Shown here piece after piece: positions 28,938-47,551 of a stretch of 64,000 bases of DNA. Positions within the stretch are counted from its first letter, which is position 1. The number at the start of each line of letters is the position of its first letter. Under the pieces are notes generated by a model. The model was given only the letters and a program-made list of their open reading frames with translations. It was not told the DNA's origin and searched no databases. Both the position numbers and the translations under genes were made by a program. Location of the stretch: assembly GCA_030531905.1 (NCBI GenBank), contig JAUNMG010000003.1, positions 3,641 through 67,640 on the forward strand. Reading direction: 5' to 3'. This stretch comes from a bacterium (lineage in GTDB: Bacteria; Bacillota_I; Bacilli_A; RF39; UBA660).

Positions 28938-29690
28938 CTAATCATTCTTTTCATACGTCTTTATAGTTTGAATAATTTGAAATAATCCATCGCTATAGTT
29001 CTTACTAAGATCAATATATTTCTTTGTTTGAAGAATTTTGGGTATTTCGCATTCTTCAAGCTTAACTGGTATTATTTTAATTTTGCCTGAATTTATTTCA
29101 TCCCACAACATTGTTTCCCATTCCTTTGTTACCCAGTTTGATTTCACTGAGTTATTTGATAAGAATAGTAATACAAATTCACATTCTTCTAATCCCTTAT
29201 TTATTTTTGATGTAATAGATTCTCCTGGTAATATATCGAAAGCATCTAACCATGTACTAATACCTTTTTCTTGTAAATCTAATGCTACAGATATGACTAT
29301 TGATTTATCAACAGATGAATGAGAAAGAAAAACCTTCTTATTTTTTAGTTGATTGGACTCTAGATAATGTTCAAATCTATTATATATTTCATAATCAATC
29401 AAATTTTTCTCCTCAATTAATTTTAATCTTTCAGAATCTGAAACACCTTTCCATAATTTAAGGGTAATTTCAGATTGCCTCCTTTTTAAATCTTCAGTGT
29501 TAAAATCATCAGTTATGTATTTATGTTCAATATAATAATATTTTGAGTTATCAAACATTTCTCCAAAATATATTACTGATTTTTCTATACCATCAAAATC
29601 AGTATCCTCATCATCATAATAACCAAATCTTCCCTTAAATTTTCCTCCAGTTATTTTTACCAATCCATAATTTCCTATATAACTTTTCAT
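28938..29690 (-). CDS. TIR-domain protein with an unrecognised about 125-aa N-terminal domain
   Basis: 250 aa. The C-terminal half reads KKVFLSHSSVDKSIV..LDLQEKGISTWLDAFDILPGESI...ECEFVLLFLSNNSVKSNWVTKEWE. That gives an FLSHS start, a conserved W-x3-E glutamate context and a strong RBS (AGAGGTG). Confidence 0.8.
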   Translation of the reverse strand: MKSYIGNYGLVKITGGKFKGRFGYYDDEDTDFDGIEKSVIYFGEMFDNSKYYYIEHKYITDDFNTEDLKRRQSEITLKLWKGVSDSERLKLIEEKNLIDYEIYNRFEHYLESNQLKNKKVFLSHSSVDKSIVISVALDLQEKGISTWLDAFDILPGESITSKINKGLEECEFVLLFLSNNSVKSNWVTKEWETMLWDEINSGKIKIIPVKLEECEIPKILQTKKYIDLSKNYSDGLFQIIQTIKTYEKND

Positions 29691-29951: not shown

Positions 29952-30722
29952 CTATCTTATTATTAGTTGTTGTCCAATAGTTAAATATGTTGATAATAGA
30001 TTATTATCACTAATAATTTTATCTACAGTAGTATTGTTTTTTTGTGCAATAGACCATAGAGTATCACCCTTTTGTACTGTGTAGACAATTTGGTTTGTAG
30101 GTGGTATTTTTAATTGTTGTCCAATTTGAAGAGTTAGTGATGACAAATTATTATAATTAACTAAATCATTAACTGAAACACCAAGTTTTCTAGCAATAGA
30201 CCATAAGGAATCTCCCTTTACAACTACATAGGTGTCAGAAGTAACATCATCTTGAGATGGTATTCTTAACTTTTGACCTATTGTAATCAAATTACTGCTT
30301 AGATTATTAAGTTGTTTTAACTCATTAACAGATATACCAAATTTATTTGCAATTGACCATAAGGAATCTCCCCTTACAACTGTATAATAGTCACCAGTAA
30401 CTGTAGAAGTACCTGGAGCTGTATATGGGGTATTTGTATAGTCAGCAATTGCTTTTACAACACCTTCAGCATATTTATCTAAATCTGATTGAAGTTTTCT
30501 AAGATCTCTTTGGTTATCAATAAAACCATATTCAATTAAAACAGATTCCCTTGGAGAAGTTTCTCTTATTATATAATAATAATCCTTGTTAGGATTTTCT
30601 GGTAATCTTCTTTGATATACTTTTCTTTTAATTTGACCAGCATCACCAATATTATTTAAAATCATATTAGCAAATGTAGGATCATTACGTAAGGCGTAAA
30701 CCACTTCAGCACCTTCGCCACC
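29952..30722 (-). pseudogene. Amidase fragment 3 of 3: C-terminal half of the Amidase_3 domain plus three LysM repeats
   Basis: The frame opens just after a TAA and reads (NSS)GGEGAEVVYALRNDP...LIEYGFIDN (end of the MurNAc-LAA domain). Three copies of Y.VV.GDSLWSIA.K.G.SV..L...N.L.S..L..GQ.L.IP follow. There is no start codon of its own apart from an internal GTG. Confidence 0.85.
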
Positions 30723-30784
30723 TGATGAGTTTAGTTAGCATTATTGATTATTTTTCACAATATTTATACTTAGAAATAATTGCC

Positions 30785-31456
30785 TTAATCTACCTCTTCT
30801 AATATCCCTTCAATTAAATATTCATATAAAACATCACTTATTGTTTGAGAATACAATCCATCTTCAATATTTTGTCTTTCTGTAGCAACCTGACCAGTTC
30901 CATTCCAATATGCATATGATATTCTTGAAATTGAGTTTTTATCAAATGAGGAAATATCACAATTCCACATTCTTGTAACAATTTCCATATTACACTTTGC
31001 TACTTTAATGCACTTATCTAAATCTGTATTTGTAATTTTTAATTTGAATTTTTTCACTTTCGACAAATCAAACATTTTGGGATATAATCTGCTGGCCTTT
31101 TCACATGATTCATAGTCTCCAAAAGCATATAAACAAGAGAATCTAGATGGATACTCTTGTTTTCTATAAAATTCTAATATATATTCAACTTGATAACTAT
31201 TAATTACATTCATCAAATGTGACGTTGGTGAAAGAAAAGTTGTTGAATTAGGAATAAAAGGTGCATATGTAATATTTCCCATAATAAAATCATTTATATC
31301 TATATTTGATATTTCCAAATTCTTAAAACCACCAGAAATTAATGAATTATTTAATTTATAGTTATGATAATTTATTTTACTATATATACTATTACCAAGG
31401 CCTATAAATACATAAAAAACTTTAGGACAGTTCTCATCCATATTTATTAATTTCAT
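30785..31456 (-). CDS. Hypothetical protein, 223 aa (element A cargo)
   Basis: Strong RBS AAAGGAGGA. The only motif noticed is EYPSRFSCLYAFGDYESCEKA, an R...Y...E pattern loosely reminiscent of RES/ART-type toxins. This is unverified. Confidence 0.5.
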   Translation of the reverse strand: MKLINMDENCPKVFYVFIGLGNSIYSKINYHNYKLNNSLISGGFKNLEISNIDINDFIMGNITYAPFIPNSTTFLSPTSHLMNVINSYQVEYILEFYRKQEYPSRFSCLYAFGDYESCEKASRLYPKMFDLSKVKKFKLKITNTDLDKCIKVAKCNMEIVTRMWNCDISSFDKNSISRISYAYWNGTGQVATERQNIEDGLYSQTISDVLYEYLIEGILEEVD

Positions 31457-31489
31457 AAAAATATCCTCCTTTTATAAATTTACTATTTT

Positions 31490-31891
31490 TTAATTTTCTT
31501 CTAGTATATTTACAAATTTATTGTATAAATTATTGTTGTCATTATTTATCAAATCATCTTCTAACATTTTTTTACCCTTTCTTTTTAAGATACGCATTAC
31601 ACCAACTCTTATTAGAGCATGTCTGAGATTTTTTAAATATTGATTATAATTTGAAGTTACACTATTATTTTGATTTCTTTGAAATCCTCTTAAATTATTC
31701 TCTAGATTATCAAGAAATAACAATTCACTCTCATATCTTTTTCTCATGATTTCAACTATATTAAAATCAACAGGCATAATTCCATTAATCATGTTATCAA
31801 TTGTTTTCAAATCTGTAATATATTGAGAATCTTCCATACTATCTTTTACTTCATCTAATTTTTTTATTATTTTTTCAATAATATCAACCAT
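31490..31891 (-). CDS. Hypothetical helical protein, 133 aa (element A cargo)
   Basis: RBS AAGAAAGGAGAAAG. It lies 33 nt upstream of the 223-aa gene and is predicted helical. No family was recognised. Confidence 0.5.
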   Translation of the reverse strand: MVDIIEKIIKKLDEVKDSMEDSQYITDLKTIDNMINGIMPVDFNIVEIMRKRYESELLFLDNLENNLRGFQRNQNNSVTSNYNQYLKNLRHALIRVGVMRILKRKGKKMLEDDLINNDNNNLYNKFVNILEEN

Positions 31892-31971
31892 TTCACTTTC
31901 TCCTTTCTTAAATTTATTAATTACTATTATAAAACATAAAATCCGTAAAAAAACATAAATATATCAGAAAG

Positions 31972-32007
31972 CAAAAAATAAGCCCTAACTAGATAACTAG
32001 TTAGAGC
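31972..32007 (-). terminator. Rho-independent terminator after the element A recombinase gene
   Basis: The reverse strand reads GCTCTAACTAG-TTAT-CTAGTTAGGGC followed by TTATTTTTTG. It separates the recombinase from the downstream 133/223-aa pair. Confidence 0.65.
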
Positions 32008-32012
32008 ATATA

Positions 32013-33683
32013 TTAATCTTTACTATACTGATTTTTGCCTTTTCTACCATAAGTATTTCTTGCTAAATTTCTATTTTCATATTTAAAAGTTACCTCTGGT
32101 ACAATATCATATTTAAAACATATAGTAATATTTCTATCTTTATCTATAACTATTTTATCTACTAATGTATCAATTAATTCTTTTTTTGGTTTATTTAAAT
32201 CTAATAGTTTTTTTATTTTTTTAGTATAATCAGGCAAAATATTTGCTTTGTTTTTCATTTTATATTTTTTAACATTTTGATTTTCTATCTCTTCATTAAT
32301 TTGTTTTAATTTTTGTTCAAATTCACTTGCTAATTCTTTATATGTATCTGCTGATATTACTCCATCACACCTATCATTGTATAAAATTTTTAATCTACCT
32401 GTAATCTTTTCTTTTTCTATTTGAAATTCTTTAACCATTTTATCAATGTTAGTAGTTTCATTGTGAATACTTTTTACTACTTCATCATTTAATTCTTTTA
32501 TATTAAGTTCTTTTATTAATTTAGATATACACTTGTTAATTTGTTCTAATACTTGTTCTTCTAAATAATTATATGGGTAAAAATGAGAATAGCATCTACC
32601 TCTTACTGGATCTCTAGAATATCTATTGCAATTAACAGACCAATAATCTTGTTTTTTACGATAAAGAACGGTAAGTCTATTTTTACATTCTTTACAAAAC
32701 AACTTACCTTCTAATAATCTTTTTTCTCTATTCGTTTTAACCTCATAATTTCTAGTATTCCTTTTTCTTAAAGTATTAACATATTCAAATGTATCTTTAT
32801 CAACTAATGGTTCATGAGTGTTTTCTACTATAATCCATAACTTTTCATCTAATGTTATCTTCTTTTTAGATTTATAACTGACTTTAGTTTGAGTGTGCTG
32901 TACTAAATCACCAGTATATACTCTATTAGTTAATATCTTTTTTACTGTGGAGATATTCCAATTATCTCTATCAATTAATCTTGATGAATAATTAGTCTTT
33001 TTATATCCACTAGGTGTAATTACATTTGCTTTATTTAGTCTATTTGCTATTTCAGTAGGTCCAATACCATCAGCTCTCCATTTAAATATTTTTTTGACTA
33101 TTGGAGCAGTATCTGGATTTGGTATTAAATGCCCCTTATCTAATGGATCTCTCATATAACCAAAACATGGTAAACTTCCAACAAATTTTCCATTTTTTCT
33201 TTTTTCATTTAATACATTTCTAATTTTTATTGAATTTTGTTTGCTATAATAATCATTACAAGCAATTATAAATGTTGATGAATCATTGCTAGCTTGATTT
33301 TTAAAACTATCATATGATTCTAATATAGATATAAATCTTATATTATTTTCTGGAAAAAATGTTTCAATATAATAACCAGTCATAACATGATCTCTACCTA
33401 ATCTTGATAAGTCTTTTACTATTACACAATTTATCTTTTTACTGTTTATATCTTCTAACATACTTTGAAATCCAGGTCTTTCAAAATCGGTTCCTGAATA
33501 TCCATCATCAACATATTCTTTAACTAAATTAAAATTATTATTTTTAACATAACCTCTTAATAACTCTTTTTGATTAATTACACTTTCACTATCAGATTCA
33601 TATTTTTTATCTTTATCTTCTTGGGATAATCTTATATAGATTCCAACATTGAAATCGTTTGCCATTAAGTAAGTATTATACAT
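32013..33683 (-). CDS. Large serine recombinase (SpoIVCA/CisA-like)
   Basis: 556 aa. It has an N-terminal resolvase domain (VGIYIRLSQED catalytic Ser, VIVKDLSRLGRD), a recombinase domain, a Cys-rich zinc-ribbon region (CKEC...C..C) and a C-terminal coiled coil. Confidence 0.9.
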   Translation of the reverse strand: MYNTYLMANDFNVGIYIRLSQEDKDKKYESDSESVINQKELLRGYVKNNNFNLVKEYVDDGYSGTDFERPGFQSMLEDINSKKINCVIVKDLSRLGRDHVMTGYYIETFFPENNIRFISILESYDSFKNQASNDSSTFIIACNDYYSKQNSIKIRNVLNEKRKNGKFVGSLPCFGYMRDPLDKGHLIPNPDTAPIVKKIFKWRADGIGPTEIANRLNKANVITPSGYKKTNYSSRLIDRDNWNISTVKKILTNRVYTGDLVQHTQTKVSYKSKKKITLDEKLWIIVENTHEPLVDKDTFEYVNTLRKRNTRNYEVKTNREKRLLEGKLFCKECKNRLTVLYRKKQDYWSVNCNRYSRDPVRGRCYSHFYPYNYLEEQVLEQINKCISKLIKELNIKELNDEVVKSIHNETTNIDKMVKEFQIEKEKITGRLKILYNDRCDGVISADTYKELASEFEQKLKQINEEIENQNVKKYKMKNKANILPDYTKKIKKLLDLNKPKKELIDTLVDKIVIDKDRNITICFKYDIVPEVTFKYENRNLARNTYGRKGKNQYSKD

Positions 33684-34272
33684 TTATTTCTCCCTTTATC
33701 TTACTTAATTTGGTATTAAGACGTGTCCATAATAACAGCAAGATTAAGAAAGGACAAATCATTTTGTTTGTACTTCCTCTTCTTTTGATATTTGTTCGAT
33801 TAAATATTTTAAAATAAGATCTTTAAATGAAATGTTATTCAAATAGGTTTCTTCCATAATCAAACCACCTATTTAAATTTATGTTTTTACTAGTATTATT
33901 AATATAATTATTAAAATTATTTATTATTAGATCAAATGTCGTTTGAGTATAAAAGGGCTAACCGTTTAGAATTTTTTTTAGCATGTCGGATGTAAACTTT
34001 TCTTTGATATCTATGTTTATTAGTAAATGTAACTTAAATGTTCTTAAGCAATTACCACCTTTCAAGATAAGATGATAATACATAAGAATCACCTCCATAA
34101 AACAGAAAAAAGACATAAGTCCTCTTTACATATTGTTTCTATAATATAATACGCCTAAATCAAATTCCGTAAGATTTGAAGCTACATATTTCAAATCATA
34201 ATATCTCATCTTCTATAGTTGAATAATATAAATTATCCGTTTCAAATTTTAATTTTTCTATTGTCTTATTTA

Positions 34273-36141
34273 TTATTTATTCAATCTTTCTCTAAAATAA
34301 TTTTGAAGATCCTTATTAGTACAATAAATATAGCACCCTTTCATCCCTCTTGTCATTAAAGTTCTATAAGTATTCTTTATTATTTCATCGGAAATTCCAT
34401 ATTGTTCTTCTTTTGGATATAAGTCCAAGCCTCTTAGTGATGAATCAGTTTTTGCTCTTTTTGTATGATCCGTAATAATATGATCATCTTCATATCTCAT
34501 ATCATCTCCTATTATTACACCAACATAATCGAATTCTAACCCTTGTGTAGTATGGATGCAACCAGCTTGTTTTACCGTATTTTCACCTAAAGCAAATAAT
34601 TCTCCACCATCTAGATTCCAACTCATTTCAAAATTATATTCAGGAATAACTATATCATTATAATCAGGATCTGTTCTATTTATTTTAGGCCAATCCCAAC
34701 AATATCCAGCTACTATTCTAGATTTATTATTAATTTTATTTTTTTCTTCTATTGCATTTCTTAATTCATTAGGATCATCAAAAATTTTAAATTCATAATC
34801 AAAACCATCTATGTCAAAATTAGCAGTTTCTCTTATTTCTAGAACATTATCTAACCATGCAATATAACCGTCAGATCCATTGCATCTAAATTGACAATCT
34901 AACTCATATGTATATATGCCTGCATTCAATTGTTTAGCAAAATATTTAATTGTTTCTTCTCTACCAATATCTTTTAATGTTACTCTCTGATTTTCATCTA
35001 AAAAGAATATAGAAAATCTTGAAGAGTTAATTATTTCCTTCACCTGATTTTCACCGTGTCCAAAAAAATCAGATTTTTCTGTTAATCTATGTGCCTCATC
35101 AACAATTAAACAATCTATAGCATTGCTCTTTTCATCAACGAATTTACCCGATGATTGAAATAAATGGCCTATATATTTTTTAGTGAAATCCCCTCTGAGT
35201 TTATTTGAATATACACTTCTTGGAGTTGCACTTTTGGTAACGTAAAAACATGTCATATCTCTTTTATTTAACTCAACTAGTAAATTAACTGCTAAAACTG
35301 ATTTTCCTGTTCCAGGTCCACCTTTTACAATAAAAACATTCTTAGAATTTGTTGATAAAGTATCAATAGCATACATTAACGCATATTCATATACAATTTT
35401 TTGCGAATCTATCATATAAAACTCTTTATTTCCTTTTAACATACTACCCAAATTATCCTGTAGCATTTTTGAAGGCCTAATTTTACCATTTTCTACTTCA
35501 TATAATACTTTTTTATCATCGCCTATTTCAATATATTTCTTAATAAACTTTCTTAATTTTAAAACATCTCTTGCTGAAAAAATTGGAGCTTCCTTAACAT
35601 ATTCTTGATAATTACTTCTTAACAATGGATCGTTATCAGAAAAATAATAATTATGAAGAAAGGCACAAGGTCTTATATTAATTTTTTTATCTTCTACATT
35701 TGAATTATAATCTCTAATTAAATTTGCATATGTCATTGCCTGATAAGAAGGATGATTAACATCCCTTTTTTTGCTACCTGTATAGGTATTAACCTTATAA
35801 ATGCCATCTACTTTACCAACTTCTTCACATTCATCCCATTGTTTCAATTCAACAATAACAACTTCATGAGAATCCTTTTTACTGTATCCAGACATCATAA
35901 AATCAATTCTGTTTCCCGTTGGAGGAATATTATACTCTATAGCTATCCCAACATTATTCGGTATCTCATCATCATCTAAAACACCCCTCATATATTGCAT
36001 AGAATTTTTCCATGAATTATACTCCTGAATTGGTGGTTTTCTGTGAATTAATTCTATATATTTTTCTCTAATTTTATCAGCTATAATACCCAAATTTACT
36101 TCTTCAATAAAACTGGACTTTATTCCTTGATACACTAACAT
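34273..36141 (-). CDS. DUF2075-type (Schlafen-like) ATPase/helicase with an N-terminal PD-(D/E)xK nuclease-like domain
   Basis: 622 aa. The N-domain has RIDFMMSGY....VVIVELKQW (D...ExK). It also has Walker A GGPGTGKSV, Walker B LIVDEAHRL and a late helicase motif IHTTQGLEFDYVGVIIGDD. Confidence 0.75.
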   Translation of the reverse strand: MLVYQGIKSSFIEEVNLGIIADKIREKYIELIHRKPPIQEYNSWKNSMQYMRGVLDDDEIPNNVGIAIEYNIPPTGNRIDFMMSGYSKKDSHEVVIVELKQWDECEEVGKVDGIYKVNTYTGSKKRDVNHPSYQAMTYANLIRDYNSNVEDKKINIRPCAFLHNYYFSDNDPLLRSNYQEYVKEAPIFSARDVLKLRKFIKKYIEIGDDKKVLYEVENGKIRPSKMLQDNLGSMLKGNKEFYMIDSQKIVYEYALMYAIDTLSTNSKNVFIVKGGPGTGKSVLAVNLLVELNKRDMTCFYVTKSATPRSVYSNKLRGDFTKKYIGHLFQSSGKFVDEKSNAIDCLIVDEAHRLTEKSDFFGHGENQVKEIINSSRFSIFFLDENQRVTLKDIGREETIKYFAKQLNAGIYTYELDCQFRCNGSDGYIAWLDNVLEIRETANFDIDGFDYEFKIFDDPNELRNAIEEKNKINNKSRIVAGYCWDWPKINRTDPDYNDIVIPEYNFEMSWNLDGGELFALGENTVKQAGCIHTTQGLEFDYVGVIIGDDMRYEDDHIITDHTKRAKTDSSLRGLDLYPKEEQYGISDEIIKNTYRTLMTRGMKGCYIYCTNKDLQNYFRERLNK

Positions 36142-36163
36142 TTACTTCAACTCCCTAATAAAA

Positions 36164-36478
36164 CTATAACTTATTATATTTATTACTTACACCCTTTGCT
36201 TTTTCCACAGGATACTTTTGTGCTGATATCTCCATTTTTTCTAATATAATCTGCTTTGGATCCACACCTATTTGTGAACATAATAAAATACAATAATTCA
36301 TAACATCAGCTATTTCATATTTTAGTTCATCTTTGTCATAATTATTATTCCATTGAAAACATTCTAACAGTTCTCCGGCTTCTATAGAAATTGATTTAGC
36401 TAAATTTTCTGGCGTATTAAATTGTAGCCAATCTCGTTCTTCAGCAAATTCTCTGATTTTTTTAGTTAATTCTTCCAT
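36164..36478 (-). CDS. MazG-like all-alpha nucleoside triphosphate pyrophosphohydrolase
   Basis: 104 aa. The motifs are FAEERDW.QF.TP.NLA.SI.IEAGELLE.FQW and ...ELKYEIADV. It lies 22 nt upstream of the DUF2075 gene. Confidence 0.75.
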   Translation of the reverse strand: MEELTKKIREFAEERDWLQFNTPENLAKSISIEAGELLECFQWNNNYDKDELKYEIADVMNYCILLCSQIGVDPKQIILEKMEISAQKYPVEKAKGVSNKYNKL

Positions 36479-36598
36479 AAAACACCTCTTTTATCTCAAT
36501 TATATCACGAAAATTGGTAAAATTTGGATTTGAACTAAAAAATTATAAAAAAAGAAATTGAATCCTCTCATTACACAATAAAAAAAGAAATAGTTTAA

Positions 36599-37444
36599 TT
36601 ACTTTTTATCAAACAATTCTTCAACAATTAAATCTCTTGAATGTAAATTATTATTTTTACCTAATAATAGATTTTCATAAAATTTAACTAAATAACTACT
36701 ATCTTCTTTTATGTTTAAATAGTTATTAAAATAATTACTTCTTACTAAAGCATTTCTAAAATAAACTGATTTATCTTTAAACAGACTATTATCTACATTG
36801 TAACCTAAACTAATTAAATATTTTTCAATAAATAAAGCTGTAGTTCTAGTATTTCCTTCTCTAAAAGGATGTACTTGCCATATACTAGAAGAAAATTTAG
36901 TTATGTTATTAATAACCTCTACTATATTCATTTCTTCATAGTTTTTTTCTAATTCTTTCGATATATCATATTCTAATGATGCCGTTAAAGTAGTGCAATC
37001 TCCATACGCTACAGAATCATTATTAAGTATTTTTTCATGTTTAGAAAAATCTATTTTTCTAAATTCCCCAGCAAATTCATAGACATCCTGAAATAAAAAT
37101 TTATGAACATATTTCAAATAATCAACTGATAAATTAAAATTATCTTTATTTAATAATTCAACTATTCTAGTAGATACAAAATCACATTCTAATTCATTAT
37201 GATTTATTTCATTTTTATTTTCTTTTTCAATGTAATAATCTTTTAATTCTTTTTCTACTTCTTCTATTGTTAAATTACCTTCTACTTCTTCTTCCAATAA
37301 TTTTCCTAAGTATTTAGAAGGTTTTAAATTATCTACTTTTTGTAATCCAATAGCCATATCCCATTGTAATTGTTTTACATAATTTCTAGATTTATATTGT
37401 TCTTCATATTCATTAACACTTGAATCTAATTCTCTTTCGCTCAT
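36599..37444 (-). CDS. Fic/DOC family protein with a divergent active-site motif
   Basis: 281 aa. The Fic motif reads HPFREGNTRTTA against the consensus HPFx[DE]GNGRxxR: the second Gly is Thr and the last Arg is Ala. Confidence 0.75.
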   Translation of the reverse strand: MSERELDSSVNEYEEQYKSRNYVKQLQWDMAIGLQKVDNLKPSKYLGKLLEEEVEGNLTIEEVEKELKDYYIEKENKNEINHNELECDFVSTRIVELLNKDNFNLSVDYLKYVHKFLFQDVYEFAGEFRKIDFSKHEKILNNDSVAYGDCTTLTASLEYDISKELEKNYEEMNIVEVINNITKFSSSIWQVHPFREGNTRTTALFIEKYLISLGYNVDNSLFKDKSVYFRNALVRSNYFNNYLNIKEDSSYLVKFYENLLLGKNNNLHSRDLIVEELFDKK

Positions 37445-37669
37445 AATTTAGTCCTCCTAACTATGTATAATTGTATCATAAAACACCTAATAATAAAACT
37501 TTTACACCAATCGCATTTTTAATAATTTAAAAAAATTTCTTTGGTGATATCTTTTAATTATATTCTCATCATTTAAAATTTATAATTTCATCATTTTATT
37601 ATTTAATATAATTGTAAATTTTTGATAACTCAATTGTTAATATGTTATTTAAGAAGTGTGATCACTTAA

Positions 37670-37897
37670 TTATTTAACATCATCTATACTAAATTTGTTT
37701 TTTACTTTATAAAATTTGCACAAATAAATATAACATTTTTTAATTGCTTTCTCTACTATTTTTACATCTTCAATAAATTCATTATATCTATAATTTTCAT
37801 TTTCAGATAATAGATGAACATTATTATGTCTCTGAACAAATATATTATCCAGTTTTTTATAATAATTGCCTTTCATTTTATTATAAACATTTTCCAA
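37670..37897 (-). CDS. Hypothetical small protein, 75 aa
   Basis: An ORF only, with no motif. It is the first gene inside the right end of element A. Confidence 0.3.
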   Translation of the reverse strand: MENVYNKMKGNYYKKLDNIFVQRHNNVHLLSENENYRYNEFIEDVKIVEKAIKKCYIYLCKFYKVKNKFSIDDVK

Positions 37898-38108
37898 ATC
37901 AATGCTTGAATCTACTTTCTTGAAGTTTTCACAAGAAAATTTACTATTTTTTTAGTTAAAAAGAAAAAAGCAACATTTATTTTCTAAATAAATACTGTCT
38001 TAATGATGTTTACTATATTCCTAGATTAAACTATACTGTCTAATTTAATCGTTTAAATATAACCGTTTTAATACTCAATCAAATTATATAATGGTAACTG
38101 AACTCGTC

Positions 38109-38339
38109 ACCTCCCGCATTTATGTGATTAGACACAAGTATAACATCTTCATCTCTACCATATAATTGATCTACTTTAGCAATTCGTTCATTTTTAGGTA
38201 AAGAAACATCCTCTGTCCTCGTCATCTTTGCAGGTATACCAAGCTGATTTAACCTATTAAATATATACTCAGCTGCTTGTAGGGTAAAATCTTTCTCCAA
38301 AATATTTCCATTAACTGCTCCACTATCAACGCCACCGTG
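38109..38339 (-). pseudogene. Amidase fragment 2 of 3: N-terminal half of the Amidase_3 domain
   Basis: The frame opens just after a TGA and reads HGGVDSGAVNGNILEKDFTLQAAEYIFNRL...DVILVSNHINAGG. It then runs into element A sequence (DEFSYHYII, stop at 38079). It has no start codon of its own. Confidence 0.85.
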
Positions 38340-38395
38340 TCAGGTATCGGTTTTCCCCAAAAACTACATATTTTATAAAATTTATAGGTTATATA

Positions 38396-40000
38396 CTATA
38401 AATCAAGATTCCATTCAATCCTAATTTCTCTAGTATTCGTTTCTTTATTCAGCTTTCCAACATATATTCTCTCAATAAATTCATCTATAATTGTTTTATT
38501 AAGTTCTTTTATATTCTTGTATTTTTTTAGTATGCTTTCTATATCTACTGAATTTTCTTTTCTTATTTCTACATTATCTAACTCTTGTAATATTTCATTT
38601 AATCTCATTTGATAATTTTCTACTTCTTTAGAATAATCTTCTCTCAACATTTTAAAATCTTCATCAGTAAGAATTCCTTTTATTTTATCCTCATATAGAT
38701 TTTTGAAATATAGTTTTTTTTCATTCAGTTTCTTTTCAATATTTGCTTTTTCTTTATTAAGGTTAGTAATTTTAGTTTCTTGTTGATTATCTTTATTAAT
38801 CTCTCGTGTAATTTCTTCTTTTAATTTTGTTTTATTACACTTATCTAATAAATCGTTAATTGCGTTTAATACAAATTCCTGTATTATATCTAGTCTAATT
38901 GATCTATTATTATCGCAAGTGTGATATTTTTTATTGCCCTTACATTGTAAGTATTCCCTTTTTTCAATAACCCCACCTGCACATTTAATATTGCATTGAT
39001 TTCTCATAAAAACTCTACCACATTCCTCGCAATAAACCTTCTGGCTTAACATATGAATTTTACCATTTTTCATTGGCTTTTCATGTTTGCCTAATCTTCT
39101 TTGTACTGCATTCCAAGTTTCCATATCAATAATTGCCTCATGTGTATTTTCAGTTCTACACCAATCTTTTTTAGGAACTTGTCTTGATTTATGATTTTTA
39201 TAACTAATATTTGTTCTTTTTCCTTGCACTAAATTACCAATGTATACTTCATTACGAAGCATTTTAGCAATTGTATCAGGTGTCCAAATACCAGTTGTTT
39301 CATAATTAAAGTTGCAACACACAAAATTGCTACCAATAGATTTTTTATAAAGTGAGGGTGGTAAAATACCTCTTTCATTTAAAGATTCACAAATCTTATA
39401 ATAACCAAGTCCACTATTATATTTATCAAAGATTTCTTTTACAACATAAGCAACATTTTCATCAACAATAAGTTTGTGTTTATCATTAGGATCTTTTAAA
39501 TAACCATAAGATGCAAAACTTCCCATCCACATTCCATCTTCTCTTTTATTCTTTAAAGACCTTTTGATATTATCTGACAAATCTTCTAAATACCATTCAT
39601 TAACAAGTCCATTTATTTGTCTTTGCTTTTTATTTGATTGAATGTTAGTGTCTGCATTGTCTACAATACTTACAAATCTAACTCCCCATTCAACAAACTT
39701 ATTATGAAGATATTTTTCTATTACTTCCATATCCCTTGAAAATCTGCTTTGTGTTTTACATAAAACAGTATTTATACGACCACTTTCACAATCTTTAATC
39801 ATTCTTTCAAAATCTGGTCTATAAGTTCCTGCTCCTGAAAAGTCATCATCTGAATAAATATCTATAACTTCCCAACCTTGTTCAATAGCATATTTTAATA
39901 GCATACTTTTTTGATTAGCGATTGACTCACTATCATCATTTTTGTTTTTCTTGAATCTATCCTCATCAGATAGTCTACAATATACACCTACCTTTTCCAT
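38396..40000 (-). CDS. Large serine recombinase
   Basis: 534 aa. It has VGVYCRLSDED (catalytic Ser), SRFSRD, a recombinase domain, a Cys-rich zinc ribbon (CEECG...C) and a C-terminal coiled coil. It is clearly a paralog of the element A enzyme but divergent. Confidence 0.9.
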   Translation of the reverse strand: MEKVGVYCRLSDEDRFKKNKNDDSESIANQKSMLLKYAIEQGWEVIDIYSDDDFSGAGTYRPDFERMIKDCESGRINTVLCKTQSRFSRDMEVIEKYLHNKFVEWGVRFVSIVDNADTNIQSNKKQRQINGLVNEWYLEDLSDNIKRSLKNKREDGMWMGSFASYGYLKDPNDKHKLIVDENVAYVVKEIFDKYNSGLGYYKICESLNERGILPPSLYKKSIGSNFVCCNFNYETTGIWTPDTIAKMLRNEVYIGNLVQGKRTNISYKNHKSRQVPKKDWCRTENTHEAIIDMETWNAVQRRLGKHEKPMKNGKIHMLSQKVYCEECGRVFMRNQCNIKCAGGVIEKREYLQCKGNKKYHTCDNNRSIRLDIIQEFVLNAINDLLDKCNKTKLKEEITREINKDNQQETKITNLNKEKANIEKKLNEKKLYFKNLYEDKIKGILTDEDFKMLREDYSKEVENYQMRLNEILQELDNVEIRKENSVDIESILKKYKNIKELNKTIIDEFIERIYVGKLNKETNTREIRIEWNLDL

Positions 40001-40283
40001 TTGCTACACCTCAACTTTCGTGAGTTATAACAAACTGATTTATCAAGGTAATTATACTTCATTTTAAGAATTATTTAAAGCCACGCTTGTATTATTCTCT
40101 AAATTTAGTATTACTTTTAACAATTTCTTTGTAATTATATCTTCTAATTCCTCATCTGTTTTTATCAAATTATTCTTATATTTAAAACTTACATTATATA
40201 CTACCTCCAATTTACTTCCCCCTTTTTTCATATTCTATAAATAATTCCCTCCTGTTCTATTGTTCATTCAAACACATCCTTTC

Positions 40284-40802
40284 TTAATTAAATTCACTTA
40301 ATAACTCCTCCATTTCTTTCATTTCTTCTGGTGTACATTCTTTACTTTCACATCGTTTTCCATTCCATAACATTACACCATCTGAATCGTAACTAATTGT
40401 TGGTTCACAATTTTTAAAATTAGTATTATTTATATTATTATTTTTCTTTTTATAATCTTTTCTTTTCTGTTGGTAATTTTCTTCTACCATAACAGGTAAA
40501 TTTTTTTCTGATACTTTGGAATTTTCTTCCATCACAATTTTAGGATTCATATAAATATGCCTATCTTTTTTTACATATTCAATATATATAAATCCTAATT
40601 TTTTTAACTTTGATAAAGAATTTGAGATTGTTTTAGTACCTACATTTAACTCTTTAGAGAAATAATCATTACTTGCGTAACAATATTCCTTATTATTAGA
40701 TAGTGAGTTAATCACACCCATCACCAACTTGTCTGTTGAAGAACAAGATGGATCATTTAATACTATTCTTGGAACAGCTGTAAAATACCTTATGAATGCC
40801 AT
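40284..40802 (-). CDS. Winged-helix DNA-binding protein (replication-initiator/DnaD-N-like)
   Basis: 172 aa. AVPRIVLNDPSCSSTDKLVMGVINSL..., YASNDYFSKELNVGTKTISNSLSKLKKLGFI is a pattern common in ICE/plasmid replication or maintenance proteins. Confidence 0.5.
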   Translation of the reverse strand: MAFIRYFTAVPRIVLNDPSCSSTDKLVMGVINSLSNNKEYCYASNDYFSKELNVGTKTISNSLSKLKKLGFIYIEYVKKDRHIYMNPKIVMEENSKVSEKNLPVMVEENYQQKRKDYKKKNNNINNTNFKNCEPTISYDSDGVMLWNGKRCESKECTPEEMKEMEELLSEFN

Positions 40803-40916
40803 AGTATTCCTTTCTGTTAATATATAGTTTTTGGGTAATTAACCTATTTGGGTTAAAATTATAGGTACTAACATAAGCCTCCCATATCTTACTGTACCTT
40901 AATTCACAAGTGTTAT

Positions 40917-41210
40917 TTAACAATCTTGTAAATGTATTTGATACATTCCAGAATCATATTCTTTAAATACCAGATACTTAAACTTTTCTAACTTTTCAAG
41001 ATTTCTTTTTAATCCTTGATTAGTTATTTTTACAACCTGTTGTATTTCTCCAATATTTAAATCTGTAATGATTCTTTCAAATCCTTTTGTAAATATATAT
41101 TCATATATAATTTTACATTCAGGTTTGATTCTTTTATCTTTAAGAATCTTTTCAGGTATTTCTAATTTCTTTATTTTCATTAGTTCCCTCCTTTCTTTTA
41201 AAATTAACAC
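40917..41210 (-). CDS. Small winged-helix DNA-binding protein
   Basis: 97 aa. It has a similar KIIYEYI......ITDLNIGEIQQVVKITNQGLKRNLEKLEKFKYL wHTH pattern and diverges from the XRE gene. Confidence 0.45.
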   Translation of the reverse strand: MLILKERRELMKIKKLEIPEKILKDKRIKPECKIIYEYIFTKGFERIITDLNIGEIQQVVKITNQGLKRNLEKLEKFKYLVFKEYDSGMYQIHLQDC

Positions 41211-41353
41211 TTCACTTTATATTGTTAATTTTCGTTAACACCTATAATATACATCGTAATTACTATGCTGTCAACACTTTTATTAACATTTTTATTATTT
41301 TTGTTGATTTTTGTTAACACATATGCTATTATTAGTGTGTGAGGTGTATTATT

Positions 41354-41857
41354 ATGCAAGAAAAAAAGATTGGCGAAGTAATTGCCAATGCTAGAGAAAA
41401 TGCAGGTCTTTCTCAAAGACAGCTTGCAAAGGTTGCTAAAATAAGTAATGCTGAATTATCAAAAATTGAATCTGGTGAACGTGAAATACCAAATCCTAAA
41501 ACATTAAGAAAGATAAGCAAATACATAAATGTTAATTATAATGAAATGATGAACATGATTGGTTTAGGAATGGAAGTAAGCACTTTAAATCCATTTATTA
41601 AAGATTACTATGATAAAATGAATCTAGATCAACTTAATGAAGCAGAAATGAATGTTTTTGGTAGTATAACTAATTCAAAACAATTAGTAGAATCGTGTAA
41701 GAAAAATTTAGAGAAAGATAACATATCAGAACAAGAAAAAGATTTATTACTACATACTATTGAAGATACTGAATATCAAATCAATACTTCAACTGCAATT
41801 ATTGAATTAATTCAAACATTAAAGATAAAGGAGAGAAATAAAAATGCAAAAAAATAA
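41354..41857 (+). CDS. XRE-family HTH regulator (repressor-like) with a helical C-terminal extension
   Basis: The HTH_3 region reads IGEVIANARENAGLSQRQLAKVAKISNAELSKIESGEREIPNPKTLRKISKYI. The start is set at the ATG preceded by GAGGTG. Confidence 0.75.
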   Translation: MQEKKIGEVIANARENAGLSQRQLAKVAKISNAELSKIESGEREIPNPKTLRKISKYINVNYNEMMNMIGLGMEVSTLNPFIKDYYDKMNLDQLNEAEMNVFGSITNSKQLVESCKKNLEKDNISEQEKDLLLHTIEDTEYQINTSTAIIELIQTLKIKERNKNAKK

Positions 41858-42287
41858 AAATTTAATTAGGAATATTGCTATTGTATTATTAAATGTTTTA
41901 TTAGTAGTTAGTTTAGTATTAGCGTTAGTTTTAAAAAATAATTTTGGGTATAATTTATATTGGGTTGCAACACCATTTTTAATGGTATTAGTTTTATCAG
42001 TAATTCAAAAATGGAGTGTTAGAGGATTAAATGCTGATACTCAAGAATCAAAAACAATACAAAGAGCATTTGATGATACTACTACATTATCAACTGTATT
42101 TTTTGGATTAATATATTTAATAATACAATTTATTGATTGGCAAAAAGAAAAAATAATAAATAATCCTTATGTAATAATTGGTTTCTTTATAGTAATGGTA
42201 GTTTATGAATTATTTACTTATTTAGCAATATATAACGCTAAAAAAGAAACTGCAAAATTATTAGAAAAAATATATAATAAAAAATAA
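41844..42287 (+). CDS. Membrane protein, 147 aa, 4 TM
   Basis: A hydrophobic ORF overlapping the XRE gene end by 14 nt. Confidence 0.45.
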   Translation: MQKNKNLIRNIAIVLLNVLLVVSLVLALVLKNNFGYNLYWVATPFLMVLVLSVIQKWSVRGLNADTQESKTIQRAFDDTTTLSTVFFGLIYLIIQFIDWQKEKIINNPYVIIGFFIVMVVYELFTYLAIYNAKKETAKLLEKIYNKK

Positions 42288-42320
42288 AAGTCCTTTGCAA
42301 GTAATTGCATTGGACTTTTT
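42288..42320 (+). terminator. Rho-independent terminator
   Basis: AAAGTCC-TT-TGCAA-gtaa-TTGCA-TT-GGACTTT followed by TTT. Confidence 0.65.
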
Positions 42321-42505
42321 ATAACGACTCAGGGCTTCTAAAGATTCCTGAGTTCCAATCAATAAATATTTATCATAAATAATTGCTTGTGTCAATTATT
42401 TAGATAAATTTATTAAAAAATGCGTGGCACGTTTTGTCAGCTTTGCTGATGAAAGTGGCGATAGCATTTTTTCTTTTTTATGAAAACGAAAGTTGAATAA
42501 AAAAG

Positions 42506-42544
42506 AGTAATACCTTTGCTTACGAAGTTTGCATTGGTATTACT
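42506..42544. other. Hairpin H1 with the 11-nt loop TTACGAAGTTT
   Basis: AGTAATACC-TT-TGC-[TTACGAAGTTT]-GCA-TT-GGTATTACT. Confidence 0.6.
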
Positions 42545-42577
42545 TAAAAGGGGTTTCAAAAGGGTATTCTCCCTTTG

Positions 42578-42635
42578 CACACTGATATTGGCGAGCCAAT
42601 ATCGTAGTGTGTTACTAACTTGTCTAAAAGTTAGT
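42578..42635 (+). other. Candidate MobV-type oriT (hairpin plus GTGTG/TT nick-like motif)
   Basis: CACACT-GATATTGGC-GA-GCCAATATC-GT-AGTGTG is followed by TTACTAACTT-gtctaa-AAGTTAGT. The TAGTGTGTTA core resembles the nick region I recall for pMV158-family (MobM) oriT, 5'-GTGTG/TT-3'. Confidence 0.45.
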
Positions 42636-42641
42636 CAATAA

Positions 42642-42680
42642 CGAGAATCCATTAGTTACGAAGTTTCTTTTGGATTCTCG
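42642..42680. other. Hairpin H2 with the same 11-nt loop TTACGAAGTTT
   Basis: CGAGAATCCA-TT-AG-[TTACGAAGTTT]-CT-TT-TGGATTCTCG. The stem sequence is unrelated to H1 but the loop is identical. Confidence 0.6.
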
Positions 42681-42686
42681 CAAATT

Positions 42687-43025
42687 TTAATCTATAAGTT
42701 CTATTTTTGTTGTACCAATTTGTGCTGGATAACTTTCATTTATTAAACCTTCATAAGTTATTTTTACTTTTGAATCTATTTTGCAAGAGTTAAAGCCATC
42801 AACATATTCAATTCTAAACTTATCACTGGATTTATATTCTTCTTCTGTATTATCTGGTTTAACAATCATAGAATTTTGTTCACACTCAACAATTATTCCT
42901 TTAAATGTATGAACATCATCTTTTGAATTTAATTTGTCTTTCCCATCTGATTTATTACATCCAGTTAATCCTAATACCATAACCCCACAAAGTAAAATAG
43001 TTAATATTGTCTTTTTCATAATCAA
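42687..43025 (-). CDS. Small lipoprotein (DUF3221/YobA-like)
   Basis: 112 aa with a lipobox LGLTGC. It is a short beta-rich mature domain. Confidence 0.55.
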   Translation of the reverse strand: MIMKKTILTILLCGVMVLGLTGCNKSDGKDKLNSKDDVHTFKGIIVECEQNSMIVKPDNTEEEYKSSDKFRIEYVDGFNSCKIDSKVKITYEGLINESYPAQIGTTKIELID

Positions 43026-43057
43026 TCCTCCATTTCAACAAATTTACTATTTAAAGA

Positions 43058-43717
43058 TTAAATTAATTTTATATAATTATTATATACTTTCATAAATTCA
43101 GAATGAGTATCAATAACTATCTCATATGTATTTGATCCTATTTGAATAATTAGTCCATCTTTTGCTTCTTGTATTGAAGTAATTTTCTCGTGTGGTTTAT
43201 CAAAGCTTACATTTTGTGAAGAATAAATTAATCTTTTTGTTGTTAAATATAATGTACCAAAATATTTAGTCCTTTGAGTTTCTCTAATAGCTCTACTTCC
43301 ACTTGCACCTGTTCTATATGAAATTCCTTTTGCTATTCTAATACTTACACCATTATTTCTACCTGTATAACCAGTTGTAATAGTCTTATCTTTAAATGTA
43401 TATCCTTTATCCATATAACAACAAAATTCATTTTCTTCAAGATTTAAGTTTGGTGTGTTAATACAAGGCATATCCCCATTATTAATTTGCTTAATAACAT
43501 CATAACTCATTAAAGATCCAGCTCCATTTATATGGAACAAATCTCTCGTTACAGCTATAACATCCTTAAACCATCCTATCATAAAAATTCCACCAGTAAA
43601 TAAATATAATATACCCATACCAATTTCACCATTCATAAATTTATGGATACCAAAAGGGCCTCCAAATAAAACTATAAAGAAATCTCTTATTTTTTTCATA
43701 TTATCTACAAACCTCAC
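43058..43717 (-). CDS. TM2-domain membrane protein with a C-terminal soluble (PH/GRAM-like?) domain
   Basis: 219 aa. GGPFGIHKFMNGEIGMGILYLFTGGIFMIGWFKD is a TM2 signature. The C-terminal about 130 aa are beta-rich. Confidence 0.6.
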   Translation of the reverse strand: MRFVDNMKKIRDFFIVLFGGPFGIHKFMNGEIGMGILYLFTGGIFMIGWFKDVIAVTRDLFHINGAGSLMSYDVIKQINNGDMPCINTPNLNLEENEFCCYMDKGYTFKDKTITTGYTGRNNGVSIRIAKGISYRTGASGSRAIRETQRTKYFGTLYLTTKRLIYSSQNVSFDKPHEKITSIQEAKDGLIIQIGSNTYEIVIDTHSEFMKVYNNYIKLI

Positions 43718-43913
43718 TATCTATTTTTAATTCACTTTTAACAAGATGCATTGGAATTAATATATCTCGCTTGCTTTCTGGAATATAATAATTTTTCTCT
43801 TTAGCAATTTCAAGTAAATGTTTCATTACCCTTTCCGCGTTTCTTCTTCCGCACCCTAATATCGATTGCAATTCTTTTATATTTATATATACTTTTTCCA
43901 TCAAAACCTCCAA
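43701..43913 (-). CDS. Small HTH protein, excisionase/AlpA-like candidate
   Basis: 70 aa. INIKELQSILGCGRRNAERVMK is an HTH-like segment. Its size and position are typical of element-encoded Xis-type proteins. Confidence 0.45.
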   Translation of the reverse strand: MEVLMEKVYINIKELQSILGCGRRNAERVMKHLLEIAKEKNYYIPESKRDILIPMHLVKSELKIDSEVCR

Positions 43914-43935
43914 TTTATTAAATCAATCCTTATAA

Positions 43936-44073
43936 TTATTTTTCACTTGAATTGTATAAAAGGTTTATAGAATCTTGAATTCTCTTTATAATTTCTTTTT
44001 TCTTTTCTTCTGATGGTGGATTCATTACAACAACTTTAAGTTCTTTCTTTTGTTTTTTCTTTTTCTTCTCCAT
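43936..44073 (-). CDS. Small Lys-rich protein, 45 aa; not in the ORF track
   Basis: MEKKKKKQKKELKVVVMNPPSEEKKKEIIKRIQDSINLLYNSSEK, with RBS AAAGGAG. It sits between two co-directional genes. Confidence 0.3.
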   Translation of the reverse strand: MEKKKKKQKKELKVVVMNPPSEEKKKEIIKRIQDSINLLYNSSEK

Positions 44074-44086
44074 AAAATAAACTCCT

Positions 44087-44404
44087 TTACTTATTTTTTA
44101 ACAATTCAAGCAAATCATCTTTAAGTAATATAAAATTATTATTTATTTCATCTAATCTTTTTTCTATTCCATCTATCAAACATTGATCCAATTTACCATT
44201 TTTATATGCAATAAGCCTATCTGGAATTATATAATAACTCCATTTGTTAACTCTTTTTATAGCATAGCCAATAGGTATTTTTTGTTCCCTTAAGCCTATA
44301 GCAACAGCCATTGGCGGAATTCCTAAATATTCTCCTGCTACTTTTGTAGTAATATTTTTAATGTTTCTCATATTATCATCTGTATACTTATTCATAAATC
44401 TCAC
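44087..44404 (-). CDS. Hypothetical protein, 105 aa (possible HTH)
   Basis: ITTKVAGEYLGIPPMAVAIGLREQKIP resembles an HTH. It is the last gene of the 46917-44087 co-directional block. Confidence 0.4.
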   Translation of the reverse strand: MRFMNKYTDDNMRNIKNITTKVAGEYLGIPPMAVAIGLREQKIPIGYAIKRVNKWSYYIIPDRLIAYKNGKLDQCLIDGIEKRLDEINNNFILLKDDLLELLKNK

Positions 44405-44411
44405 ATACTTT

Positions 44412-45542
44412 TTAATTTAAATATTTTAATAAATCATCTTCGCCAATAATTTGTATTGATTTACCTTTTTCATTTAACTCCATAGCTTTTTGGACTTTTC
44501 CACCATAGTTACCAAATTTCCAAGCTTCACTTCCTGAACCTCCAACTATTAAATAATTTAATTTAGAATTAACACCTTTACTAATTATTCCGCCTTTATT
44601 AACGATTTTATTTTCAACTTCTTCTTTTGATCCACTATTAAATGTACCTGTTAAACAAAAATTCATATTTTCAAAAATAATATCACTATCATTTTTATTT
44701 TCCTCTAAAGGATTAATAAATTCATTAAAAATTGATATTAATTCTATATATTCTTCATCACTAACTTTTCCATCAAGAAGAACGCTTTTTACTATATTAT
44801 TTATTTTATCAAAAGGATAATTACCAATTAACTGTGTATTATCATTTAACCAACTATTGAGAGAATATATTTCTTCTAATTCTATTTTTTGATCCTCCAT
44901 TATAGTTTCAATTATACTTTTCAATACTTGTAATGATTTAGTATCATCACTATAAACAACTTTCATACCAGTAGAACGATTTTTATTTTCAATGTAATTA
45001 TATTCTTCTACATCATTTTCATCTATATCATAATTATCTTTTATATAATTAAAAATATCTAAACAAGCCATTGTATCAAATAAAGCATTGTGATGTTCTT
45101 CAAGTTTTATTCCTAAATAATCACAAACATAATCTAATTTATAATGACTTATATCTAAATATTTTTGTGATAATTTTTGAGTACATATTATTTTTAGTGT
45201 TGGAAGTATAATATTATATTTTTGCAATGTTTTAGTAATAACACTCAAATCATATTTAATACCATGACCCACAATAATACTATTTGTTAATATTTCTTCA
45301 TTATCTTTCCAGAATTTATCAAATGTCAGAGAATCCTTAACCATATTAGGTGTAATTTTATTTACCCTCATATTTATTTCATCAAATCTATCTTCTGGAT
45401 TTATCAATACATTTTCCTTTTTTACAACTTCATTATTTTTTACCTGAATAAAAGCTATAGAACAAATAGAATCTGCTTTTGTATTTGGATTTTCTATATC
45501 TAATACTATAAAATCTTTGATATTTAATTTAGTTTCTACCAT
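44412..45542 (-). CDS. DEDDh (DnaQ-like) 3'-5' exonuclease fused to a helical middle domain and a C-terminal BRCT domain
   Basis: 376 aa. It has ExoI FIVLDIENPN, ExoII IVGHGIKYDLSV and ExoIII HHNALFDTMA. The C-terminus FCLTGTF....EVENKIVNKGGIISKGVNSKLNYLIVGG...KVQKAMELNEKG..IQIIGEDDL is BRCT-like, as in NAD-ligase. Confidence 0.75.
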   Translation of the reverse strand: MVETKLNIKDFIVLDIENPNTKADSICSIAFIQVKNNEVVKKENVLINPEDRFDEINMRVNKITPNMVKDSLTFDKFWKDNEEILTNSIIVGHGIKYDLSVITKTLQKYNIILPTLKIICTQKLSQKYLDISHYKLDYVCDYLGIKLEEHHNALFDTMACLDIFNYIKDNYDIDENDVEEYNYIENKNRSTGMKVVYSDDTKSLQVLKSIIETIMEDQKIELEEIYSLNSWLNDNTQLIGNYPFDKINNIVKSVLLDGKVSDEEYIELISIFNEFINPLEENKNDSDIIFENMNFCLTGTFNSGSKEEVENKIVNKGGIISKGVNSKLNYLIVGGSGSEAWKFGNYGGKVQKAMELNEKGKSIQIIGEDDLLKYLN

Positions 45543-45556
45543 AATTTACCTCTTTT

Positions 45557-45817
45557 CTAAATAAATGTATATCTTTTATCTTTTTTCATCTTTTCAATTT
45601 CTTCTTGTGTATAAAACCAACTAGATGTATCAATACCTCTTTGTTCGCAACTTCTAGCTATATCATTGATTGTATCGTATAATTTAATCAATGATTTCCT
45701 TTTTTGTGCTACAGTCATTTGTGGTACATGAACAATAACTGTAGAATTACCAAATTTATATGTTATTTCTCTTTCTTCTTGAATAATATCTTCATCTTTT
45801 AACTCTTTTGAAAACAT
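45557..45817 (-). CDS. Hypothetical protein, 86 aa
   Basis: An ORF lying 14 nt upstream of the exonuclease gene. No motif was recognised. Confidence 0.4.
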   Translation of the reverse strand: MFSKELKDEDIIQEEREITYKFGNSTVIVHVPQMTVAQKRKSLIKLYDTINDIARSCEQRGIDTSSWFYTQEEIEKMKKDKRYTFI

Positions 45818-45858
45818 AAAATCATTCCTTTAACTATATTAATTATAACATTTTTTTG

Positions 45859-46917: not shown

Positions 46918-47042
46918 TATTTTCCCTCACTTTTAAAAGAATTTTGTACTACCTATATAATTATATCACATTTTTGGTATATTACCCGCTATTTTCGTAT
47001 CAAAGCCATATTAAATGGGAAAATTAATATGGTGAGAGAAAT

Positions 47043-47471
47043 ATGATAGATAATAATTTAAAATATTGTAGAGAAGAACTTGAAATGACACAAACTGAAT
47101 TAGGTAATATATTTGGTGTAAGCGATTCAACTGTTCGTGGTTGGGAAAATGCTTATGATACTATACCATTAAGAAAGTTAGTTAAATTTTGTAATCAATT
47201 TAATTATTCTATTGATTATGTTTTAAATTTAACAAGAGAAAATAAACATTATTCTAAAATAGAAAAATTAGATAAAGTTGTTATTGGTAAGAAATTAAAA
47301 TCTTTAAGAGAAAAGTTAGGATTAACGCAACAAAAAATCGCTGATGAATGTTCTATTTCTAGAGCTACATATTGTCATTATGAAATAGGCATGAATCTAA
47401 TAACTACTTTAACTTTATATACAATATGTAAAAATCATAAAATCTCAATTGATGAATTTTTAAGAAAATAA
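47043..47471 (+). CDS. Regulator with two tandem XRE-type HTH domains
   Basis: 142 aa. It has two HTH_3 units: LEMTQTELGNIFGVSDSTVRGWENAYDTIPLRKLVKF and LGLTQQKIADECSISRATYCHYEIGMNLITTLTLYTI. Confidence 0.75.
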   Translation: MIDNNLKYCREELEMTQTELGNIFGVSDSTVRGWENAYDTIPLRKLVKFCNQFNYSIDYVLNLTRENKHYSKIEKLDKVVIGKKLKSLREKLGLTQQKIADECSISRATYCHYEIGMNLITTLTLYTICKNHKISIDEFLRK

Positions 47472-47551
47472 AAAAAGTGAGGTATGCTAAATAAATAACA
47501 TATCTCACTTTTATTTTGTAATATTTAAAGAATAACAATAATCAAAAACAT

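Follow-up and report, generated by a model that had tools for sequence, protein, structure and literature searches.

Experimental phage protection has been reported for Nhi (Staphylococcus epidermidis SERP2475; Bari et al. 2022) and for the Nhi-like system (Millman et al. 2022), each of which acts as a single gene whose product joins an N-terminal nuclease to a DUF2075 domain, and an action on replication intermediates has been shown for Nhi. A protein of the same architecture is encoded in a 64,000-nucleotide (nt) stretch of DNA from a bacterium of the UBA660 lineage (GenBank assembly GCA_030531905.1, contig JAUNMG010000003.1, positions 3,641 to 67,640 of the forward strand), which is referred to here as the window. 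Its gene lies behind a MazG-like gene and a Fic gene on a small integrating element (element A). The locus is best explained, with a probability of about 0.55, as two independent defence-type cargo items on a serine-recombinase element: a two-gene, Nhi-type MazG-DUF2075 module and a stand-alone Fic gene.

The 622-aa nuclease-helicase compared with Nhi

The three open reading frames (ORFs) are all located on the minus strand and encode a Fic-domain protein (36599-37444, 281 aa), a MazG-like all-alpha NTP pyrophosphohydrolase (36164-36478, 104 aa) and a nuclease-helicase of the DUF2075/SLFN group-3 type (34273-36141, 622 aa). These coordinates, and the gaps of 120 nt and 22 nt between the genes, match exactly those of an initial annotation that a model had made from the letters of the window. 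Its domain calls were all borne out by a Pfam search: Fic (PF02661, E = 8e-12, 46.3 bits against a cut-off of 24), MazG-like (PF12643, E = 1e-18, 67.4 bits against a cut-off of 27) and SLFN-g3_helicase/DUF2075 (PF09848, residues 267-608, E = 6e-100, 335.4 bits against a cut-off of 24). The motifs that it had quoted for the 622-aa protein were located at residues 79 (IDF), 97 (VELKQW), 274 (GGPGTGKS), 347 (VDEAHRL) and 531 (TTQGLEFDYVGV).

The 622-aa protein can be divided into an N-terminal domain (aa 1-255, 35377-36141, minus strand) and a superfamily 1B (SF1B) helicase core (aa 256-622, 34273-35376, minus strand) that was assigned by Pfam, a 52-homologue alignment that reaches down to 31% identity and Foldseek. 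Within the alignment the residues G277-K280 (the Walker A sequence GTGK) and D348, E349 and H351 (DEAH) of the helicase are invariant, and the core residues comprise GTGK 277-280, DEAH 348-351, Q385, Q417, R419, Q533 and R598. An AF2 model based on the diverse 52-sequence alignment reached a pLDDT of 90.7 (a model based on only 15 close homologues was unusable, with a pLDDT of 45.7), and a Foldseek comparison of the full model with the PDB gave as its best matches the SF1B helicases DSH9, SLFN11, RecD2, Dna2, Dda and Upf1 (E = 1e-10 to 1e-7). A phmmer search of the PDB with the full 622-aa protein gave zero matches.

Ten residues of the N-terminal domain (E69, R78, D80, E98, K100, W102, H130, P131, Q134 and Y138) are invariant in the same alignment. 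The pattern D..ExK..QxxxY formed by D80, E98-x-K100 and Q134xxxY138, with E69 as a further conserved acidic residue, reads as a RecB/HsdR-type nuclease signature. The order of strands and helices in the AF2 model fits a PD-(D/E)xK nuclease fold, and members of the domain family have weak Pfam matches to NERD, DUF2726 and HSDR_N_2; a search of PDB sequences with the domain profile gave only spurious armadillo-repeat matches. The family of this 255-residue domain comprises 1599 clusters at 50% identity, in which the domain is N-terminal without exception and the proteins are mostly about 620-650 or about 790 aa long. The subgroup of about 790 aa, mostly from Pseudomonadota, extends at its C-terminus by about 170 aa of uncharacterised sequence. 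Relatives are rare in phage genomes (4 out of 50,697 records), and a search of PHROGs with the helicase found no informative phage family.

To treat the nuclease-helicase fusion as new would be an overstatement: an N-terminal PD-(D/E)xK/HsdR-like nuclease followed by a C-terminal DUF2075 SF1 helicase is the published architecture of Nhi and Nhi-like, with which the 622-aa protein also shares its location in defence islands and mobile elements. The PADLOC Nhi profile (PDLC02372), however, covers only residues 263-422 of the helicase (E = 6.5e-14) and the N-terminal domain represents a distinct family; the 622-aa protein has the architecture of Nhi but is not, by sequence, a member of the Nhi family. 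Furthermore, Nhi acts alone whereas the DUF2075 subfamily described here nearly always has a MazG-like gene in front. The helicase resembles Schlafen group-3 proteins such as SLFN11, and Dna2, in its SF1B fold (Foldseek E = 1e-9 to 1e-10), and Dna2 likewise combines a PD-(D/E)xK nuclease with an SF1B helicase. The identity to both is only 10-14%, however, and the N-terminal domains differ: the SLFN nuclease has another fold and the Dna2 nuclease contains an Fe-S cluster.

Linkage of the MazG-like and DUF2075 genes

The 104-aa MazG-like protein aligns end to end with the archaeal pyrophosphatase 4qgp (E = 5e-20) and with DCTPP1/RS21-C6 (E = 2e-16), an enzyme that prefers dCTP and 5-modified dCTP (PMC7162842). 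The nearest PDB chains are 4qgp followed by the DCTPP1 entries 2a3q, 6sqw and 7mu5, and the matches to this group extend over the whole protein (E = 5e-20 to 3e-13). The EExxE...ExxD metal ligands and two tryptophans (W17 and W43) are conserved with these enzymes, and each of the ligands E33, E36, E55 and D58 is present in at least 95% of 76 MazG-like homologues. The MazG-like protein differs from them in being a bare 104-aa core that is encoded in a mobile-element operon together with a nuclease-helicase.

A scan with the DUF2075 alignment, limited to one genome per species, identified 80 loci within the Bacillota, Bacteroidota (Pedobacter and Flavobacterium), Pseudomonadota, Verrucomicrobiota, Chloroflexota, Coriobacteriia and Methanosphaera. 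In 76 out of 80 loci the DUF2075 gene has a co-directional MazG-like gene as its direct neighbour (75 upstream and one downstream), and every other flanking family is common to at most 14 of the DUF2075 loci. A conserved neighbourhood of the two genes, for which the initial annotation had proposed a check, is found across phyla and far beyond chance. The pairwise distances of the two proteins co-vary (70 loci, r = 0.80, Mantel p <= 0.001), and the spacing between the genes exceeds 300 nt in about 33 loci. Plasmids of Priestia and of the archaeon Halalkalicoccus carry the pair as well, annotated as “nucleotide pyrophosphohydrolase” and “DUF2075 domain-containing protein”. The MazG-like and DUF2075 genes form a conserved unit across bacteria and archaea.

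The initial annotation had not recognised the three-gene combination as a named system, and a PADLOC v2 scan gave no name for the pair either: no PADLOC model covers the MazG-like protein and the helicase receives partial matches only. A literature search on DUF2075 with MazG, and on MazG-like proteins with defence, did not find the pair described; in the papers covered, DUF2075 and MazG never occurred together and DUF2075 was mentioned in only 10.

The initial annotation had also considered the context typical of defence genes, and this holds for the related loci, where restriction-modification genes, type IV restriction enzymes, HEPN/Abi, Cas9 and ABC-3C occur as neighbours or inserts. The pair is carried by integrative or mobilisable elements and by plasmids, and its neighbours include NUDIX with a DUF3427 helicase, AAA_21 with RloB, Mrr, Cas9, C5 methyltransferases, type I restriction-modification, ABC-three-component, Mokosh-like and Hhe genes. 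The genes that interrupt the pair encode a PLD-helicase-DUF3427 type IV enzyme (PADLOC E = 1.7e-226), HNH, HEPN_AbiU2, Hypoth_Ymh, AIPR, DUF4145/PD-T7-4, PDC-S64 or a GIY-YIG-DUF2075 paralogue. If the pair itself is a defence operon, it is a clean case of defence genes nested inside another one. The short gap within the pair is an insertion hot spot: among loci L001-L059, at least 26 contain one or two extra co-directional genes there, drawn from about 20 unrelated and mostly defence-type families.

Some further arrangements were noted around the pair. A small NUDIX (NUDIX_4) gene recurs beside a DUF3427-helicase type IV gene in 18 loci; like the MazG-DUF2075 pair, in whose islands it is found, this arrangement combines an NTP pyrophosphohydrolase with a helicase-nuclease. 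The two pairings share the small pyrophosphohydrolase gene beside the helicase-nuclease and the islands in which they are found, but both proteins have other folds, and a recognised reader of modified bases (DUF3427) is present in the type IV enzyme but not in the DUF2075 protein. Tandem DUF2075 paralogues are present in four loci, one of them on a Hymenobacter plasmid, for example a GIY-YIG-DUF2075 gene beside a PD-(D/E)xK-DUF2075 gene. In five viral contigs, MazG-like genes adjoin other DUF2075 subfamilies that lack the N-terminal domain described here.

The Fic gene and the competing explanations

The Fic protein matches the single-gene PADLOC candidate PDC-S72 (E = 3.2e-79) at profile positions 6-274 of 377, and the C-terminal third of the profile is therefore absent from it. 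A literature search for PDC-S72 did not find experimental validation. The Fic motif HPFREGNTRTTA (residues 192-203) departs from the canonical AMPylation motif HxFx(D/E)GN(G/K)RxxR at two positions (T replaces G/K and A replaces the last R), and both departures are kept in 15 Fic homologues. SoFic and PDC-S72 resemble the window gene as stand-alone Fic-domain genes in defence contexts, but SoFic matches it at only E = 5e-5, and the altered motif and the missing C-terminal part set it apart. A toxin-antitoxin pair of Fic with the 75-aa ORF upstream (37670-37897) was considered and rejected because a regular-expression search for the inhibitory (S/T)xxxE(G/N) motif found it in neither protein. 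An AbiEi-like antitoxin or regulator gene (a label assigned by reading the sequences, without a Pfam or PADLOC scan) is located directly upstream of Fic in many relatives (seven loci and 13 Fic-centred loci), which is a hint of an AbiEi-Fic pair; in the window this place is taken only by the 75-aa ORF, which is unrelated to it.

The initial annotation had joined Fic, the MazG-like protein and the DUF2075 protein into one candidate immunity module; that the three form a single immune system now appears quite improbable. The triad does recur with gene spacings of 3-17 nt in 14 out of 80 DUF2075-centred loci, at a DUF2075 divergence of 60-71% and a Fic identity of 53-85%, but Fic is absent from the other 66. 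In a metagenome scan centred on Fic (matches at least 77% identical, 63 loci with enough downstream sequence), the DUF2075 gene was present in 13 loci and the pair was missing from 50, where Fic is followed by a HipA-like kinase, a methyltransferase, HsdR or another gene. The identical 622-aa protein is encoded on five contigs, one of which (L083) comes from a different sample and is a 100% identical copy of the window region. On the other four (L081, L082, L084 and L085) a 522-aa Mrr-type type IV restriction gene (PADLOC mREase_IV, E = 5e-59) separates Fic from MazG at the position of the 120-nt spacer of the window, and in one of the four Fic is additionally preceded by a 1126-aa STAND-like gene. 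The match of Fic by itself to a single-gene candidate family argues in the same direction. Fic is an independent neighbour, outside the MazG-DUF2075 pair. A fragment of the N-terminal part of an amidase gene sits directly upstream of Fic in 24 Fic-centred loci, which places Fic near the attL end of the element family, with a cargo slot of variable content behind it.

With Fic set apart as a stand-alone PDC-S72-type gene near attL, the MazG-DUF2075 pair fills the variable cargo slot behind it and is plausibly Nhi-type immunity in a new, two-gene form in which a conserved pyrophosphatase is the partner. The SF1B motor would move along or unwind invader DNA, probably at replication intermediates as for Nhi, and the RecB/HsdR-like PD-(D/E)xK domain would cleave the DNA handled by the motor. 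The MazG-like protein is predicted to be an active DCTPP1-like dNTP pyrophosphatase whose probable substrates are dCTP or 5-modified (non-canonical) pyrimidine dNTPs. Such an activity could starve phages that make modified DNA, or could bar modified nucleotides released by DNA degradation from entering the host chromosome. The 120-nt spacer between Fic and MazG (36479-36598, minus strand) probably supplies the pair with a promoter of its own; it contains an extended -10-like sequence (TGaTATAAT, 36509-36501) and a ribosome-binding site (AAGAGG).

A number of observations weigh against a two-component immune module. Nhi and Nhi-like act as single genes, and MazG may therefore be dispensable. 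The DUF2075 gene occurs without MazG in six loci, and the dependence within the pair is one-sided: MazG-like relatives in viral contigs are mostly found without DUF2075 (72 out of 80 have no DUF2075 neighbour). Other genes stand between MazG and DUF2075 in roughly 40% of the loci, so that tight coupling is not required. The full-model fold search matched the helicase part alone, and the N-terminal domain is a putative PD-(D/E)xK nuclease whose fold is suggested by motifs and weak profile matches. A scan for promoters and terminators in this DNA of 25% GC content gave nothing above chance, the spacer promoter included, and some non-Firmicute loci have housekeeping flanks (TIM, S1 and AlaDH). 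The single-gene action of Nhi and Nhi-like, the six loci without MazG and the frequent insertions are what would be expected under the main rival explanation, in which the DUF2075 protein is a self-sufficient Nhi-like defence and the MazG-like gene is dispensable for immunity, being either carried along in the same transcript or of mild effect on fitness. This is a real possibility although an unlikely one, given the 95% adjacency across phyla and domains with conserved order and strand, the co-divergence of the two proteins and the strict retention of the MazG catalytic residues. A housekeeping or repair module that combines nucleotide-pool sanitation with a repair helicase-nuclease is quite improbable: DCTPP1-type enzymes are house-cleaning enzymes, Dna2 and RecD2-like helicases serve repair and some loci have housekeeping neighbours, but the distribution of the pair is patchy, it is located on integrative elements and plasmids, the identical DUF2075 protein is found in different cargo arrangements and defence genes both flank and interrupt the pair. 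Finally, the module might work for the mobile element instead of guarding the host against phages, for example if it keeps out competing elements or plasmids or stabilises the element. The pair is always on or near mobile elements and nuclease-helicases such as DdmDE target plasmids, but the Nhi precedents are anti-phage and such a role cannot be distinguished by sequence from anti-phage defence; this explanation is considered very improbable.

If the two-component reading of the pair is correct, the MazG-DUF2075 genes represent a defence module that is widespread in bacteria and archaea (at least 1599 clusters at 50% identity) and unnamed in PADLOC v2. The module would link an Nhi-type nuclease-helicase with the sanitation of the nucleotide pool by an enzyme homologous to human DCTPP1. 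A more specific and rather speculative version of this reading, itself unlikely, holds that the MazG-like protein provides self-protection or specificity within a widespread, unnamed two-gene immune system and destroys modified or non-canonical pyrimidine dNTPs. Phages with modified DNA would then be stripped of their protection, or salvaged modified nucleotides would be barred from host DNA, and the nuclease-helicase could safely attack invader DNA, with a metabolic enzyme in the place of the methyltransferase of a restriction-modification system. The NUDIX and DUF3427-helicase pairs of the same islands would share this logic, and the operon would double as a landing pad for other defence genes.

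Element A, the split amidase gene and element B

Element A (about 7.4 kb, from about 30719 to about 38107) is a serine-recombinase element inserted within an amidase gene at ...NAGG|GEGAE..., with the junction core AGGTG. On the minus strand it contains, in this order, the 75-aa ORF, the Fic, MazG-like and DUF2075 genes (together 43% of the element), a large serine recombinase (32013-33683, minus strand; Resolvase, Recombinase and Zn_ribbon_recom domains) and two ORFs without known identity. The initial annotation had regarded the three genes as cargo of a small integrating element, and this was supported because the amidase gene is broken around the recombinase-bearing element and its reading frame can be rejoined: across the rejoined junction the amidase reads NHINAGG|GEGAEVVY in frame, and the Amidase_3 profile (Pfam) is matched at positions 21-79 on one side of the element and at positions 100-173 on the other. 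An empty site was seen for element B but not for element A, for which an intact homologous amidase elsewhere (L163) was all that was found. Fragments of the amidase adjoin the same element family in 24 Fic-centred and six DUF2075-centred loci, and the family has a cargo slot that exchanges defence modules among gut bacteria.

The complete N-acetylmuramoyl-L-alanine amidase gene (Amidase_3 and three LysM domains) lies in three pieces on the minus strand, within 29952-48983 of the window. The first piece starts at 48983 (MFRNDNVRVIVDAGHGG), the second resumes at about 38333 (GVDSGAVNGNILEKDF...NHINAGG) and the third resumes at about 30718 (GEGAEVVYALRND...LysM x3) and ends at 29952. The gene, which lacks a signal peptide, is thus interrupted twice, by two different serine-recombinase elements. 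The two insertion sites, CATGGAGGTGGCGTTGAT and GCGGGAGGTGGCGAAGGT, have the core GGAGGTGGCG in common, which encodes Gly-Gly-Gly; these att cores were taken by eye from the junction sequences. A search for direct repeats found the LysM repeats alone and no long att repeats, and an Rfam scan of the region from 28 to 50 kb of the window identified zero RNA families.

The second of these, element B, is a mobilisable integrative element of 10.6 kb (about 38334-48932) that is missing from the sibling contig L081, where the flanks are 99% identical and an empty site is present. It encodes a Mob_Pre relaxase (47552-48832), a DEDDh exonuclease-BRCT protein (44412-45542; PADLOC PDC-S48, E = 6e-24) and a serine recombinase (38396-40000) that is 31% identical to the recombinase of element A, and its cargo further includes two XRE-type HTH regulators and a TM2-domain protein. 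Directly downstream of the amidase gene, beyond element A, a gene on the minus strand (28938-29690) encodes a TIR-domain protein of 250 aa that matches Pfam TIR_2 (E = 2e-30) and PADLOC PDC-S66 (E = 5e-20) and also has ThsB-like matches.

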